NCBI GenBank assembly: GCA_029379265.1
Contig: JAQYWN010000583.1
Span: forward strand, 1 to 5,360
Length of the DNA: 5,360 bases
Reading direction: 5' to 3'
Origin: Rhizonema sp. NSF051
GTDB lineage: Bacteria; Cyanobacteriota; Cyanobacteriia; Cyanobacteriales; Nostocaceae
This document shows positions 967 to 5,360 of the stretch, piece after piece. Position numbers and translations under genes: made by a program. Below the pieces are notes generated by a model, which was not told the DNA's origin, searched no databases, and was given only the letters and a program-made list of their open reading frames with translations. Every line of letters begins with the position of its first letter. Position 1 is the stretch's first letter.

Positions 967-1359
967 ATGGAGCCATTGACTGCTGGTGCGATCGCAATTG
1001 GAACTGTAATTGCCACCAAAGCATTAGAAAAAACGGGCGAAAAGGTAGGGGAATCTCTATGGGATAAAACTGGTAAGTTTCTCGTTACCCTCAAAAAACA
1101 CTCTCCCCATACTGTAGTTGCTATTGAAAAAGCACCAGAACAACCACTCGATTATGGTAAAGCTGTATTGGAAGTAGAATTAGCAGCTAAAGCTCATCCT
1201 GAAGTCAATCAATCTATGCAGGAATTGATAGCAGCAGCACAAGCTGTGGAGAAATCTCAACATCCATATGCTCCCGCTTTTATTCAAAACATCCAAAAAG
1301 CTATTAATGCGGCTCAAAATCAAACCATTGACCAAAGAGGTAGTATTTTCAACATATGA
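967..1359 (+). CDS. Hypothetical 130-aa helical protein; candidate N-terminal effector/adaptor module of the downstream NLR (BELL/HeLo-like or EAD-like, unverified)
   Basis: It starts at an ATG with a GAGG SD and runs 130 codons to TGA 1357-1359. The N-terminus PLTAGAIAIGTVIATKAL is uncharged and rich in small residues. The remainder looks amphipathic-helical (KALEKTGEKVGESLWDKTGKFL, LDYGKAVLEVELAAKAHPEV, MQELIAAAQAVEK). The tail is N/Q-rich. It sits directly upstream of, and in frame with, the NB-ARC gene. Confidence 0.7.
   Translation: MEPLTAGAIAIGTVIATKALEKTGEKVGESLWDKTGKFLVTLKKHSPHTVVAIEKAPEQPLDYGKAVLEVELAAKAHPEVNQSMQELIAAAQAVEKSQHPYAPAFIQNIQKAINAAQNQTIDQRGSIFNI
988..995. repeat. HIP1 octamer GCGATCGC (inside the 967 ORF)
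   Basis: Exact GCGATCGC, the second copy in the window. Confidence 0.8.
1357..1359 (+). other. Single in-frame TGA (UGA-C context) between the two same-frame ORFs
   Basis: 967 and 1420 are 453 nt apart (151 codons). The only stop between them is TGA 1357-1359, followed by C. Codons 1360-1419 are open (LKPSEGECARYILEDLKKQP). Confidence 0.95.
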
Positions 1360-1419
1360 CTGAAGCCGTCCGAAGGGGAATGTGCGCGGTACATTCTTGA
1401 GGATTTAAAAAAGCAGCCA

Positions 1420-4400
1420 GTGGGTACTCCAAGCAACTTGCCTTTAACTAATGCCAAGTTTGTGGGGCGCGGCTCAGAATTGCAGTTGGTTCACGAAAAG
1501 TTGCAGCAATCTCGTACCGTTGCCATTTCGTCGGTTTCTGGCATGGGTGGCATTGGTAAAACGGAGCTGGCGTTACAGTATGCCTATGCACAGCTCTACC
1601 AAAATGTTTATCCAGGCGGAATTTGTTGGCTGGGTGTGCGTGAACAAGATATCGGTATTGGTCTTATAGATTTTGCTCGTTTACAGCTTGGTTTACCCGA
1701 ACCACCAGAAGACTTGAGCCACCTCCAGCAAGTGGAATGGTATTGTCGGCGATGGAAGGGACAGTCAATTCTGATTGTGATTGATGATGTCACGCATTAT
1801 GAAGTTATTCAACCCTATTTAAAAAAGTTTGATCCGCGCTTCAAAGTATTAATAACTACACGCTTGAAAATTGGGACATCCGATCAGCGATTAGATTTAA
1901 CTGTGCTTACAGAAGAGATATCTTTGGAACTGCTACAAGCCTTAGTAGGAGACCCTAAGCGCATTAATTCTCAGCTTGACGATGCCAAAGTATTGTGTGC
2001 ATGGTTGGGATATTTGCCGCTCGCACTAGAGCTAGTGGGTCGGTATCTAGAGAAAAAGCCTGATTTAAGTCTTGCAGAAGCATTGGAGCGCTTGAAAGCA
2101 AGAAAGCTAGAAGCTCAGGCTCTTATCAAAGTTAAAAGCGGCATGACAGCAACCTTAGGGGTGGCAGCTGCATTTGAGTTGAGTTGGCAAGAACTGGATG
2201 ACTTTGCTCAAGCTTTGGGTGAACTCCTCAGTATATTTGCTCCAGCGCCGATTCCTTGGGAATTAGTGGAACAGTGTACTGATATTTTAGAGGCGACCGA
2301 AAAATCACCAAACTGGGAACGAGAAAACATCGAGAATTATCGTGACGATGAACTCATTGGACACAATTTATTGCAGCACGTTGGAACCAAACACTATCAA
2401 CTGCATCAACTGATTCGGGAATTTTTTGTAACAAAGCGCGAACAACGGAAAGATACAGAAAGCTTAAAATATGCCTTTTGTTTTGGAATAACATCTGTCA
2501 GACTACTTATCCCAGAAGTAATTACATTGCCTATCAGCGAACAGTTAAAATCTTGGATTCCCCATCTGGAGGAAGCTGCTGCCCTCTTAAGCCCTTGGAT
2601 TACCAACTCAGAGATGACGATGACGTTCATCCTTTTACAAGGTAATGAACCCGCATTAATCATTGGTCAATTCTATGAATTCCAAGCCGTCTATGCAGAA
2701 GCAGAACGTTGGTATAAACAATGTCTTGAATTTCTGGAAAATTGCTTAAGTGATGATCCTCGGAGTACTGCATCTTTTCTAAAGGAATGGGCACGACGTA
2801 AGCAAGACAAAGAGTCTGTCGATTTTGTAATCTTTCAATTGAAAGAGCTTGAATCTGGTATTTCCACGATCCTCAATGAGTTAGCTCGACTCTACCAGTT
2901 ACAAGGACGGTATAGAGAAGCTGAACCTTTTTATCTAAAATCGCTTGAAGCTCAACAAAAAATATACGGTAACGATCATCCCAAGGTTGCACTGTCTCTC
3001 AATAATTTAGCAACACTTTATTTGGAGTATGGACGTGTCATGGATGCCGAATCCCTGCTCATCCAATCTCTCGACATTTATAAAAAACAACTTGGTGATG
3101 ACGATCCCGAAGTCACACAATGTCTCAACAATTTAGCGGGAATTTATATGATGGAGTGGCGTTGTCGCGAGGCAGAATCTATTTGGATGAAGTCTCTCAG
3201 GACTTACGAACAGCATTATGGCAGCGAGCATTCTAAAACAGCATTAGTACTCGCCAACTTGGCAAAACTTTATTTTCAGCAAAGACTTTATGGTAAGGCT
3301 GAACCCTTTTATTTAAGAGCATTTGAAATCTATCAACGGCAGTTTGGAGACAATCATCCTGATGTTGCCAAAGCCATGAGCAACTTAGCAAACCTGTATG
3401 CAGAACAAGGATGCTATAGCGATGCCGAACAACTGCAATTGAGATCACTTGAAATAACTCAGCAAATATTTCCAAATGGACATCTTGATGTCTCAAACGT
3501 TCTCATTAGAATGGGGGATCTTTACGTCAAGCAAGGACGCTATGCTGATGCTGATTCTGCCTACTTGAAGGCACTAGAAATTCATCAAAATTTGTTTGGA
3601 GAGGATAATGTCAATATCGCAATCATTAGTAATTTAGCGTGGGTATATATACGCCAAGGACACTTCAATACCGCTGAATCACTTTACCTAAAAATTATTG
3701 AACGGCAAAACCAGTTTGATCGTTTTAGTGCTTATGGCATTCCTATTGGTTTAGCGCAAGTTTACTCTCATCAAGGACGCTTGAATGAAGCAGAGTCGCT
3801 TTTGTTACAGTCATTAGAAATTCAGAAGCAACAGCTTGGCGACCATCATCCTGAACTAGCTACCAGTCTCAGCACTATAGCAGAAATCTACCGATTGCAA
3901 GGACGGCATTCGGAAGCAGAACCCCTTTTATGTCAGGCATTTGAGATTGATCGACAGTGTTATGGAGAGAATCATCCTCTGGTGGCAGATAGTCTCACAA
4001 GATTGGCTTTAATCCACCGGATGCAGGGACGCTATCAGGAAGCCGAGCCTCTCTTACAGCAAGCCCTCGATATTTATCAACAGCATTTTGGCTATGATCA
4101 TGCCAACGTTGCGGTCATTCTCAACAATTTGGCATTGGTTTACGATGCTCAAGGACACCCCGAAAAAGCCGAACATCTGTTAAAGCAAACCCTTGAGATT
4201 CGCCTGCGCCTGCTTGGAGCCGATCACCTTGAAGTTGCGACCTGCTTCAACGATCTTGGCATCATCTACCGCAACCAAGGACGCTATGCTGAGGCAGAAT
4301 CGCTGTTTCTGCAAGCTCGTGACATTTATCAACGGCAGCCTGATGGCGATCATCCTGACATGGCAGGGAATTTTTATCAGTTAGCAGAACTGTATTCTTT

Positions 4401-5049
4401 GCAAGATCGCTACGATGAGGCAAGACCGCTTTATCTCAAATCATTAGAAAGAGTGCAACATCAGTTTGGACTGACCCATCCTAATATTCTGGCTCATCTA
4501 ATGAAACTTGCAAAAATCTGCAACGTGCAAGCGCGTTATGCTGAGGCAGAATCGTTCGCTATCAAGGCTTTGATAATCGCTCGTCCGCTGTTCGGAGATA
4601 ATCATTCTGCGGTGGCGTTGTCCCTGAACCAATTGGGGCTTGCTTACCTCTCGCAAGGGCACTACCGAGAAGCCGAACCGTTGCTGCTGAAAAGTGTGGA
4701 TATTTTGCAAAGCCATTTTGGGCAGGATCATCCAATGCTAGTATCTGTTCTCAGCAATTTAGCAGAACTCTATTTCTCTCAGAAACGCTTTCCAGAGGCA
4801 GAACCGCTCGTGAGACAAGCCCTCGCTATTAACCAACAGCAATTTAGCAACGATCATCCCGAAGTTGCCTATCACATTCATCATCTGGCAATTTTGTCTA
4901 GCTCACAGGGACGCTATCAAGAGGCAGAATCCCTCTTTTCTAAAGCTTTGACTTTGTTTGAAGAACATCTCGGTGTTGCCCATCCTACAACAATGAATGT
5001 TCGTCAGAACTATGCCAAACTTTTACAGTGGATGAGTAATCATGAGTGA
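1420..5049 (+). CDS. STAND/NLR-like ATPase: NB-ARC domain plus 17 TPR (kinesin-light-chain-like, TPR_10/TPR_12-type) repeats
   Basis: The ORF is 1209 codons. NB-ARC motifs by eye: FVGRGSEL (aa 14-21), Walker A GMGGIGKT (nt 1540-1563), Walker B ILIVIDD (1768-1788), KVLITTR, GYLPLAL (2008-2028) and LHQ in the MHD position (2401-2409). A long TPR array follows. The start is uncertain: GTG 1420 is the first canonical start after the upstream stop and has no well-placed SD. Confidence 0.93.
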   Translation: MGTPSNLPLTNAKFVGRGSELQLVHEKLQQSRTVAISSVSGMGGIGKTELALQYAYAQLYQNVYPGGICWLGVREQDIGIGLIDFARLQLGLPEPPEDLSHLQQVEWYCRRWKGQSILIVIDDVTHYEVIQPYLKKFDPRFKVLITTRLKIGTSDQRLDLTVLTEEISLELLQALVGDPKRINSQLDDAKVLCAWLGYLPLALELVGRYLEKKPDLSLAEALERLKARKLEAQALIKVKSGMTATLGVAAAFELSWQELDDFAQALGELLSIFAPAPIPWELVEQCTDILEATEKSPNWERENIENYRDDELIGHNLLQHVGTKHYQLHQLIREFFVTKREQRKDTESLKYAFCFGITSVRLLIPEVITLPISEQLKSWIPHLEEAAALLSPWITNSEMTMTFILLQGNEPALIIGQFYEFQAVYAEAERWYKQCLEFLENCLSDDPRSTASFLKEWARRKQDKESVDFVIFQLKELESGISTILNELARLYQLQGRYREAEPFYLKSLEAQQKIYGNDHPKVALSLNNLATLYLEYGRVMDAESLLIQSLDIYKKQLGDDDPEVTQCLNNLAGIYMMEWRCREAESIWMKSLRTYEQHYGSEHSKTALVLANLAKLYFQQRLYGKAEPFYLRAFEIYQRQFGDNHPDVAKAMSNLANLYAEQGCYSDAEQLQLRSLEITQQIFPNGHLDVSNVLIRMGDLYVKQGRYADADSAYLKALEIHQNLFGEDNVNIAIISNLAWVYIRQGHFNTAESLYLKIIERQNQFDRFSAYGIPIGLAQVYSHQGRLNEAESLLLQSLEIQKQQLGDHHPELATSLSTIAEIYRLQGRHSEAEPLLCQAFEIDRQCYGENHPLVADSLTRLALIHRMQGRYQEAEPLLQQALDIYQQHFGYDHANVAVILNNLALVYDAQGHPEKAEHLLKQTLEIRLRLLGADHLEVATCFNDLGIIYRNQGRYAEAESLFLQARDIYQRQPDGDHPDMAGNFYQLAELYSLQDRYDEARPLYLKSLERVQHQFGLTHPNILAHLMKLAKICNVQARYAEAESFAIKALIIARPLFGDNHSAVALSLNQLGLAYLSQGHYREAEPLLLKSVDILQSHFGQDHPMLVSVLSNLAELYFSQKRFPEAEPLVRQALAINQQQFSNDHPEVAYHIHHLAILSSSQGRYQEAESLFSKALTLFEEHLGVAHPTTMNVRQNYAKLLQWMSNHE
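1459..2427 (+). other. NB-ARC (AP-ATPase) nucleotide-binding and winged-helix module within the NLR
   Basis: The motifs FVGR, GMGGIGKT, hhhhDD, LITTR, GxLPLAL and LHQLIREFF occur in the canonical NB-ARC order and spacing (established Pfam NB-ARC signature, recognised by eye). Confidence 0.85.
2872..5046 (+). repeat. Array of 17 coding TPR units (42 aa / 126 nt) plus a C-terminal partial cap
   Basis: The recurrent pattern is LNNLAxLYxxQGRYxEAEPLxxxxLEIxxxxxGxDHPxVAxx, with units starting at aa 485, 527, 569, 611, 653, 695, 736, 775, 817 ... 1153. At the DNA level, TATGCTGAGGCAGAATCG is exact at 4285-4302 and 4537-4554 (252 nt = 2 units apart). CAGGGACGCTATCA occurs at 4024 and 4906 (882 nt = 7 units apart). 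Confidence 0.9.
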
Positions 5050-5360
5050 ACCTTCAATATTCAATCCAGAGCGGACAGGAGTTTTCAGACTATCTTGCAG
5101 GAAATTACACGGATCTCGATCTTATGCCTATTGTAGATGTAGTAGACGTAGTTAACCTTAAAGCATTTTCGGGGAATACAAGGCTCAAACTATTAATCTC
5201 TCGTGGCTATGACTTGTCTGTCTCCCCCCACTTATATTTGTTTTCAGTGGGAGCAAGGACGCATAAAGACAAATTGCGTAAGCACCCCAACACCTTCCTC
5301 ACTTTCGGCATACTATTAAGTACAAGCTGGTGTCCTTTCAAAGCAATGGCTCTCAAGTGA
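5046..5360 (+). CDS. Hypothetical 104-aa ORF of unknown function; coding status uncertain
   Basis: A GTG start at 5046 overlaps the NLR stop (GTGA, 5046-5049), and TGA sits exactly at the window end. I recognise no motif or family. The purine-rich GGATGAG about 10 nt upstream is only a weak SD. The sequence has no clear domain-like character. Confidence 0.3.
   Translation: MNLQYSIQSGQEFSDYLAGNYTDLDLMPIVDVVDVVNLKAFSGNTRLKLLISRGYDLSVSPHLYLFSVGARTHKDKLRKHPNTFLTFGILLSTSWCPFKAMALK

Follow-up and report, generated by a model that had tools for sequence, protein, structure and literature searches.

The question posed by the 5,360-nucleotide stretch of DNA from Rhizonema sp. NSF051 that was analysed here in its full length (contig JAQYWN010000583.1, in the following termed the window) concerns the role of a single stop codon, which separates a small gene from a large NLR-like gene that continues in the same frame. 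The parts of the gene pair and of its junction described below are located on the forward strand. The small open reading frame (ORF) extends from ATG 967 to TGA 1359 and encodes 130 aa (coding region 967-1356), the large ORF extends from GTG 1420 to TGA 5049 and encodes 1209 aa, which comprise an NB-ARC NTPase followed by a long TPR array (1459-5049, with a normal terminal TGA at 5047-5049). The layout claimed in an earlier note on this DNA, with a shared frame, a single TGA followed by C and 20 open codons, is confirmed on the sequence. TGA 1357-1359 is the sole stop between the ORFs, the 20 codons leading from it to GTG 1420 are open and the frame past the TGA encompasses 1229 fully intact codons, including about 700 codons of TPR repeats. 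With its P-loop NB-ARC module preceding a TPR array, the downstream product qualifies as a STAND NLR-like protein, and both parts are recognized in Pfam (NB-ARC 1.2e-14 for residues 41-251 counted from position 1360, corresponding to about 1480-2112; TPR_12 1.7e-165). As judged from the comparison with related loci, the two ORFs of the window probably belong to a single transcription unit and are connected through a programmed leaky UGA, which would give rise to a free effector carrying a Bell-type tail and to a rarer fusion of this Bell-tail module with the NLR. Leaky-stop recoding into a free module and a rarer full-length NLR had been one of the explanations offered in the earlier note and it is the one favoured by the comparative data.

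The conservation of the stop and its frame is reflected in 80 genome loci that were fetched by homology to the small protein and for which the stop codon, the next base and the three downstream frames were tabulated. Of the 54 non-redundant loci that end in TGA, 47 continue in frame 0 beyond the stop for 100 codons or more without interruption, many of them for 400-1230 codons, and frames +1 and +2 are open in none of the 54, so that the arrangement by far exceeds what chance would produce. No in-frame continuation is found in any of the 25 TAA/TAG loci, whose large downstream ORF resides in any of the three frames after a gap of 4-538 nt. TGA terminates 73 of the 344 long ORFs (at least 200 aa) of the same loci and is thus an ordinary stop there. 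TGAC is the rarest stop context among these long ORFs (10/344), yet it is the rule at the junction of a cassette that comprises the small module, the stop, a short spacer, a hairpin and a linker, and the TGA together with the following C (1357-1360 in the window), which constitutes the proposed readthrough site, is conserved across the junctions of the family. Pooling of all loci yields 86 non-redundant hairpin sites in 53 clusters below 85% identity, 85 of them with TGA (72 TGAC), and at 79 sites the frame runs on for 100 codons or more, or until the contig ends. A TAA, TAG or sense codon at the stop position was found at none of the 85 sites; the position of codon 131, whose inspection in orthologues the earlier note had proposed, is a conserved TGA (85/86 hairpin sites), and the retention of this one stop, for which neither a sense codon nor a tighter stop is substituted, is what readthrough would lead one to expect. 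The stop is ancient. Together with the C-terminus preceding it and the in-frame continuation, it reappears in dozens of diverged loci that belong to many genera, and a fresh nonsense mutation or pseudogene as well as a sequencing error are thereby excluded.

A second conserved feature of the junction is a short hairpin located downstream of the stop. In an alignment of 47 junctions (A2), the consensus reads TGA-CTNNAGTC-GYCYG-(AACGGGAA)-CGGRY-AAAG, and RNAalifold independently predicts a 5-bp hairpin that begins 8 nt 3' of the TGA and not 19 nt after it, where the hairpin of the earlier note had been placed. From viral recoding signals, about 8 nt is known as the distance from which a downstream structure affects a ribosome that has the stop codon in its A site. 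One pair of the hairpin occurs as U-A in 28, as C-G in 17 and as U-G in 2 of the 47 sequences without a single broken case, pairing in the two inner helices reaches 98-99%, and 85% of the cells pair in the whole tested structure compared to 12-43% if the 3' partner is slid by 1-3 columns. The synonymous divergence of the hairpin codons (codons 3-10 past the TGA) is just 0.10, which points to a constraint at the level of the RNA, and the pairing also explains an otherwise odd coupling of amino acids, in which Pro at position 4 is accompanied by Ala or Val at position 9, and Ser by Thr. Our case for the hairpin is based on covariation and conservation, and stability alone was not used as evidence. 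When metagenome contigs were scanned for the hairpin alone, with the stop left unspecified, 47 of 48 matches carried a TGA at the exact in-frame position (44 TGAC, 2 TGAG and 1 TGAA) and the 48th was an unrelated high-GC chance match; sense codons, TAA or TAG were absent from these metagenome hairpin sites. Across 708 kb, the matches of a covariance model of the cassette were confined to these junctions, with one match per locus and none in TAA/TAG loci, and no Rfam family matches the junction in either the window or L005. An outer stem TTTGACT/AGTTAAA that includes the stop codon was also considered; it is 77% paired, with compensation in one cell of one of its eight pairs, and is not claimed.

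The region following the hairpin bears the signature of coding sequence. Directly past the TGA, the encoded peptide follows the conserved pattern L-x-S-[S/P]-x-x-E-R-[T/A/V]-K-L-x-P and continues into IPY-x-GS-x-x-FVGRE, where the NB-ARC module starts. The linker varies in length in whole codons only, the ratio of nonsynonymous to synonymous variation (pN/pS) of its codons 11-24 amounts to 0.61 compared to 0.50 for the first 36 NB-ARC codons, and entropy is highest at third positions. The corresponding values upstream of the stop (0.88-0.89) are meaningless, as they compare differing tail families without alignment. These properties support a linker that behaves as coding sequence and that is presumably translated, with the TGA and the hairpin being under selection. 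The interval from the TGA to the first landmark of the NTPase does not contain any in-frame ATG, GTG or TTG in 27 of 46 in-frame loci, whose conserved segment can thus not be made by ordinary initiation. A simple fission into two genes, as contemplated in the earlier note, is for these reasons not supported, and the combination of a kept stop with a conserved start and a noncoding linker is not seen, given that no start is conserved at the position of GTG 1420 and the pN/pS of the linker is coding-like. What the comparison of the loci shows is that the TGA, its frame, the hairpin and the linker are conserved and that start codons are absent. The close relatives of the NB-ARC protein bear fused N-terminal EAD4, EAD10, TIR or protease domains, as is normal for an NLR, and a protein devoid of such a domain would therefore be anomalous for the clade.

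In the window, the linker from the TGA to FVGR covers 33 codons (1360-1458), which would be made via readthrough only, save for the portion after GTG 1420. The FVGR sequence is located at 1459-1470 (codon 34 past the TGA) and the P-loop GMGGIGKT at 1540-1563, whose Met corresponds to the first in-frame ATG after the TGA, in agreement with the previous claim that no ATG precedes it. GTG 1420-1422 (codon 21 past the TGA) is indeed the first canonical in-frame start before the NB-ARC module, although it is not the only one, since TTG 1438-1440 (codon 27) had been missed. An SD-like (Shine-Dalgarno-like) GAGGA at 1399-1403 sits 16 nt 5' of GTG 1420, as stated before; no such sequence is found within 5-10 nt of this GTG, and a start at its position is not conserved in related loci. 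Upstream of the small ORF, an SD-like GAGG was read from the sequence at 956-959, 7 nt 5' of ATG 967, and the best sigma-70-like promoter match in the window (TTGGCA-16-AATAAT, 913-940) is located about 27 nt 5' of this ORF, a call that stems from a consensus scan alone and says nothing on function. The same kind of scan did not find any promoter-like or terminator-like site between the small ORF and the NLR ORF.

The protein encoded upstream of the stop appears to consist of a Bell-like domain and an amyloid-type tail, as assigned from its features and genomic context without a profile match. Its N-terminus MEPLTAGAIAIGTVIATKAL begins with MEPLT, followed by a Gly-containing hydrophobic helix 1, and its Q/N-rich C-terminal tail FIQNIQKAINAAQNQTIDQRGSIFNI is encoded at about 1279-1356. 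An AlphaFold2 model (predicted local distance difference test score, pLDDT, of 75) displays six helices, with helix 1 spanning residues 3-23, the last 10 residues disordered and the Q/N/G/T-rich tail predicted with low confidence. The term helical module used in the earlier note thus holds for its fold and falls short of the fuller identity proposed here. The assignment to Bell is suggested by a size of about 100-150 aa, the hydrophobic first helix, the short C-terminal motif and the NLR located directly 3' in filamentous cyanobacteria. The window protein is a small all-alpha domain with a hydrophobic MEPIS-type N-terminal helix, and a collinear adjacent STAND NTPase with TPR or WD repeats is found in the window and in related loci. 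Compared to the usual homologues of 146 aa, the window copy contains an internal deletion of about 16-18 aa.

The family is widespread as a free-standing protein. A homology search with the small protein and the linker yielded 730 matches, the best 120 of which are all free-standing (98-148 aa) and include no homologue that covers the region past the stop. Aligned homologues share the end point ...QRGSTFNI*, with QRGS(T/I)FNI* as family form. The identical small protein P0001 belongs to the metagenome-assembled genome of Rhizonema sp. NSF051, and the small gene is found directly 5' of an NB-ARC gene in Stigonema and in Anabaena/Nostoc genomes of the PCC 7120 type. In the metagenome set, the upstream modules comprise several sub-families (MEPLT..., MEPVTLT..., MTDPVT...) with varied N/Q/G/T-rich tails, and family tail peptides are represented by QNIQKAINAAQNQTIDQRGSTFNI and NVFQGNTFNAPVTFN. 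An exhaustive search with HMMER for fusions across a sense codon gave 329 matches. In the 150 best representatives of these, a few long proteins (P0184, P0228, P0241 and P0148) have a Bell-like domain attached directly to a dynamin-like GTPase or to HEAT repeats, and no tail-linker junction or NB-ARC is present in these long fusions. The Bell-like domain is thus a modular N-terminal effector that is also used by non-STAND NTPases. The dynamin-like GTPase fusions (P0184, P0228, P0241) span 820-900 aa and contain neither stop, tail nor cassette. A fold search of the PDB with the AlphaFold2 model provided nothing significant (all matches with E > 0.6), and a PDB profile search found only a likeness to WD40 proteins of cyanobacteria that is summed and repeat-driven, without any individual stretch that passes, and that was regarded as a curiosity. 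Residues 28-48 (1048-1110, GESLWDKTGKFLVTLKKHSPH) resemble the cyanobacterial WD40-repeat consensus, and the E-value of 6.6e-13 obtained for the family profile against the Nostoc WD40 protein 2ymu is the sum of many weak repeat matches; this segment could reflect chance or a relic of NLR-module exchange.

The relationship between the small protein and the NLR can be viewed in light of BASS amyloid-signalling pairs, whose hallmark is a motif duplicated on the small protein and the NLR and for which only two-gene and 'all-in-one' architectures were described (Dyrka et al. 2020, bioRxiv 10.1101/2020.01.06.895854). As in these Bell/BASS-NLR pairs of filamentous bacteria, a small helical protein (about 100-150 aa), whose N-terminal helix is hydrophobic and whose C-terminus carries a short motif, is located in multicellular cyanobacteria directly 5' of a collinear gene that combines NB-ARC or NACHT with TPR or WD repeats, and the duplicated motif is found in sister loci (L038, L039, L049, L051, L068 and others). 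Among the loci that do not continue in frame, most of which are TAA/TAG sister loci, 21 of 27 have an NLR that carries a copy of the small protein's tail at its N-terminus, as illustrated by QVGKIQANEVNF / QVGQINADTVNF and AEKIGQVVMPGG.. / AEKIGVYVAPGG.... Unlike such pairs, the in-frame TGA loci contain the repeat in only 1 of 43 cases, and the window and the other 42 loci, which carry no motif on the NLR side, have their ORFs joined in frame across UGA-C and the hairpin. For TGA-type NLRs, which have no motif of their own, readthrough would thus be the only way to gain one.

A related system is Bab/Agp of E. coli ECOR25, where a Bell-related effector with an amyloid motif was experimentally shown to be activated by a TPR sensor leading to abortive infection, and where an N-terminal 'MEPIS' motif common to Bell, Hell and Bab was described (bioRxiv 10.1101/2024.11.07.622273). 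The window protein, with its MEPLT start and its Gly-containing hydrophobic helix, resembles the 'MEPIS'-type helix of Bab, whereas Bab/Agp differs in its organization as two genes that each encode a BASS11 motif, in its sensor, which is of the type TPR-GreA/B-C-PIN and not a STAND NTPase, and in the absence of recoding. The fungal HET-S/NWD2, HELLP/PNT1 and 'all-in-one' HeLo-NLR systems are alike in that the NLR nucleates amyloid to activate a membrane-targeting helical effector and in the coexistence of two-gene and fused architectures, but they are eukaryotic and do not involve a shared ORF or readthrough, whereas here one message would yield fused and free forms. Stop codons or readthrough are not mentioned in Dyrka et al. 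2020, the Bab/Agp preprint or Kaur et al. 2020, and full-text searches for literature on readthrough in cyanobacterial or NLR/antiphage contexts found nothing relevant.

The window copy itself deviates from the family in its hairpin region and is a chimera that has lost the hairpin 3' arm. The stop is followed by an 8-nt spacer (C1360-C1367, with 1361-1367 as the remainder past the C of TGA-C) that is homologous to the conserved CTNNAGTC of alignment A2, and by a remnant of the family hairpin (1368-1380) consisting of the 5' arm GTCCG (1368-1372) and the loop AAGGGGAA (1373-1380). The recombination breakpoint is placed within this loop at about 1378-1381. Its upstream side matches the Bell-TGA cassette, whereas from residue 7 past the TGA the sequence no longer resembles the cassette and aligns at 64% identity with the NB-ARC/TPR protein P0269 (residues 89-231), whose N-terminal domain of about 90 aa is of a different kind. 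The recombinant junction has kept the frame, and the copy retains the tail motif as well as TGA-C with its spacer and the 5' arm. A replacement structure can be formed at 1368-1404, in which GUCC (1368-1371) pairs with GGAU (1401-1404) around a 10-bp hairpin (1376-1385 / 1389-1398). This structure starts at the canonical 8-nt spacing and is more stable than the canonical hairpins. The previously noted hairpin GAATGT/ACATTC does exist as the core of the 10-bp stem; it is specific to the window and arose through the recombinant loss of the canonical 3' arm, and does not represent the conserved element.

Several observations weigh against programmed readthrough. In the family, the loci are related by descent and the counts, such as the 85 sites with TGA, do not represent independent events; TGA-G is found at ten hairpin sites; the canonical hairpins are of modest stability (z = -0.3 to -1.0) and not significantly above shuffles; and a GTG directly follows the stop in six TGA-G genome loci (L023, L025, L037, L041-L043), where termination-reinitiation could take place. 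Pfam, NCBIfam and PADLOC do not recognize a significant family for the small protein, whose Bell membership is thus a matter of its features. In the window, the canonical 3' arm CGGAC is replaced by TGTGC (1381-1385), and the replacement structure (-14.7 kcal/mol, z = -1.9) is only mildly unusual, since 9 of 200 shuffles fold as well or better. GTG 1420 and TTG 1438 provide start codons in the window, and an independently initiated NB-ARC/TPR protein without N-terminal domain is possible for this copy. An open coding downstream frame without independent start and a weak +4 base combined with a structure after about 8 nt are both found in the family, whereas the window shares the former except for its start codons and the latter in part.

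Some of these points are accounted for by a two-gene operon without recoding, in which the NLR would be translated by reinitiation or from a non-canonical or internal start, the hairpin would set expression by processing, stability or coupling, and the frame would be the relic of an ancestral fusion. Such an arrangement would make use of the two start codons in the window and of the GTG following the stop in the six TGA-G loci, and it would agree with the TAA/TAG sister loci, which are genuine two-gene systems, and with the short products reported by gene callers. We nevertheless regard it as unlikely, since 27 of 46 loci do not offer any ATG, GTG or TTG ahead of the NTPase landmark, the codon next to the TGA is mostly CTA, CTG or CCA, and the frame and its openness are kept over 53 clusters with a linker that changes in whole codons only. 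It would also leave unexplained that TAA and TAG never occur as the stop, even though one transition suffices to convert TGA into TAA, and that TGA-type NLRs do not carry the N-terminal motif that real two-gene partners bear.

Another explanation, confined to the window, assumes decay or recent recombination that has destroyed the element, so that only the short Bell-like protein would be made, possibly together with an NLR initiated at GTG 1420 without N-terminal domain, the in-frame join being a matter of luck. Its appeal lies in the breakpoint inside the hairpin loop with the loss of the 3' arm, in the score against the cassette model R1, which is the lowest for the window (42.8 bits), in the internal deletion of the small protein and in the presence of clearly pseudogenised members with later stops (L012 and L031). 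This account appears improbable in view of the 1229 intact codons with their TPR region, the preservation of TGA-C, spacer, 5' arm and tail motif at a join that maintained the frame, and the new and more stable structure formed at the same 8-nt spacing, but because the 3' arm was lost, the efficiency of readthrough in the window copy is uncertain. At L031, the sequence at 5421-5429 reads TGA CTG TAG, with a second stop one codon on followed by an intact NB-ARC ORF of 537 codons, and could represent either a recent pseudogene or a case of double readthrough.

A UGA followed by a close conserved hairpin with a G-rich loop is the general layout of a bacterial selenocysteine insertion sequence (SECIS), and selenocysteine sites normally have homologues containing Cys. 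A selenocysteine codon with the hairpin acting as SECIS bound by SelB, with which the covariation of the hairpin would agree, is in our case highly improbable, as Cys or another sense codon is found at none of 85 sites, the site resides in an inter-module linker and not in a redox centre, domain types that are unrelated to each other follow the same cassette, the junction region has no match to an Rfam family, and cyanobacteria are reported in the literature not to decode selenocysteine.

In the preferred reading of a programmed leaky stop, most ribosomes would terminate at UGA 1357-1359 and release the free 130-aa Bell-like protein with its membrane-targeting helical domain and amyloid-type tail, whereas a minority would decode UGA-C by a near-cognate tRNA and proceed to a protein of about 1360 aa, in which Bell domain, tail, linker, NB-ARC and TPR would follow each other. 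In the family, this readthrough would be promoted by the weak context of UGA-C for release factor 2 (RF2) and by the hairpin 8 nt on, which would be located at the mRNA entrance of the ribosome. The long form would act as sensor whose NB-ARC/TPR part oligomerises upon a trigger and thereby gathers the tails. These would serve as a template for the identical tail of the abundant short form, and Bell-mediated membrane damage would follow in the course of abortive infection or regulated cell death, as experimentally shown for the two-gene Bab/Agp system. The logic would be that of the two-gene Bell/BASS-NLR pairs, except that a single copy of the motif would serve both partners, and the effector to sensor ratio would be set by the efficiency of readthrough, which might respond to infection or stress. 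Readthrough itself, the amino acid inserted at the UGA, amyloid templating and a role in defence all belong to what is inferred here.

Precedents for such a mechanism are found in viruses, where readthrough takes place in the A1 protein of phage Qbeta (UGA), in gag-pol of the murine leukaemia virus (UAG with a structure about 8 nt downstream) and at the UGA-C of alphaviruses. The proposed system would have in common with them that one leaky stop is conserved and followed by C at +4, that an RNA structure is separated from it by about 8 nt, and that the extended product, which has the same N-terminus as the short one, is made at a fixed low ratio to it, and it differs in its short hairpin of 5-6 bp, in an extension of more than 1000 aa and in its location in chromosomal bacterial genes, where, to our knowledge, conserved readthrough signals are very rare. 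In E. coli prfB, which encodes RF2, the site CUU UGA C provides a poor RF2 context UGA-C (often UGA CUA) as trigger of recoding. The poor termination context is common to both, but unlike prfB, where a +1 frameshift is promoted by an upstream SD-like stimulator, the cassette has an open zero frame and a stimulator that is located downstream.

The comparison across loci extends this proposal beyond the window. The cassette is fused in frame to ORFs of the types NB-ARC(+TPR), NACHT-HEAT-NCC-H, nSTAND3/NACHT, CHASE2, transmembrane plus FGE-sulfatase, PsbP-like and TPR-only. The members that precede non-NTPase sensors (L017 2178-3329, L021 2097-3395, L052 5439-6098) comprise a transmembrane region with FGE-sulfatase, a CHASE2 and a PsbP-like domain, all in frame, and the proposed recoding would thus not be restricted to NLRs. 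The cassette appears to have been shuffled by recombination onto many sensor types, with the window as one such recombinant. On balance, we lean towards the view that cyanobacteria carry a modular recoding cassette consisting of a Bell-like domain, an amyloid-type tail, UGA-C, an 8-nt spacer, a hairpin and a linker. By means of this cassette, one reading frame would give rise to a free pore-forming effector and, at low frequency, to the same effector and tail fused to a STAND, NACHT or other sensor, which would constitute a 'two-in-one' and thus third NLR amyloid architecture, whose stoichiometry is set by translation. Its novelty would lie in bringing together NLR amyloid signalling and programmed readthrough, each of which is known by itself. 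If correct, bacterial chromosomes would harbour a sizeable family of structure-assisted readthrough sites, with about 85 non-redundant cases in the sampled loci, which would explain many cyanobacterial NLR-like genes that seemingly have no N-terminal effector domain as well as many Bell-type small proteins with a partnerless C-terminal motif, and annotation pipelines would have split one recoded gene into two. The presence of the cassette in a Nostoc/Anabaena PCC 7120-type chromosome (L003) makes the proposal testable in a genetically tractable strain.

Further observations concern individual loci and the surroundings of the gene pair. In Dapis and Okeania (Oscillatoriales; L027 5439-5984 and L028 3862-4011), the homologous small ORF likewise ends in TGA-C and continues in frame without canonical hairpin into a short protein with a predicted transmembrane segment, and the in-frame TGA-C may thus be older or broader than the hairpin cassette. 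In L002, L003 and L004, which represent the same locus in three PCC 7120-like Anabaena/Nostoc assemblies, the NLRs as called contain 751, 924 and 798 aa (with the NLR of L003 at 6571-9345), and these length differences indicate variation of the TPR copy number between near-identical strains. Downstream of the NLR in the window, an ORF of 104 aa (5046-5360), whose GTG overlaps the NLR stop (GTGA) and which runs to the last base of the window, has no Pfam match and may be a translationally coupled third gene. Upstream of the operon, the window contains a perfect 13-bp hairpin followed by a T-run (1-27), an inverted repeat with 35-nt arms of 83% complementarity (247-281 / 302-336), and a perfect 16-bp inverted repeat GCGGGTTATTAAGGAC / GTCCTTAATAACCCGC (765-780 / 799-814) with a loop of 18 nt. 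The second of them (247-336) drew microRNA-type Rfam matches judged to be spurious and a terminator-like call on the minus strand. The three repeats may correspond to terminators that belong to adjacent genes, to small mobile elements or to repeat elements. Finally, the cyanobacterial HIP1 palindrome GCGATCGC is found twice, at 721-728 and at 993-1000, the latter within the small ORF.

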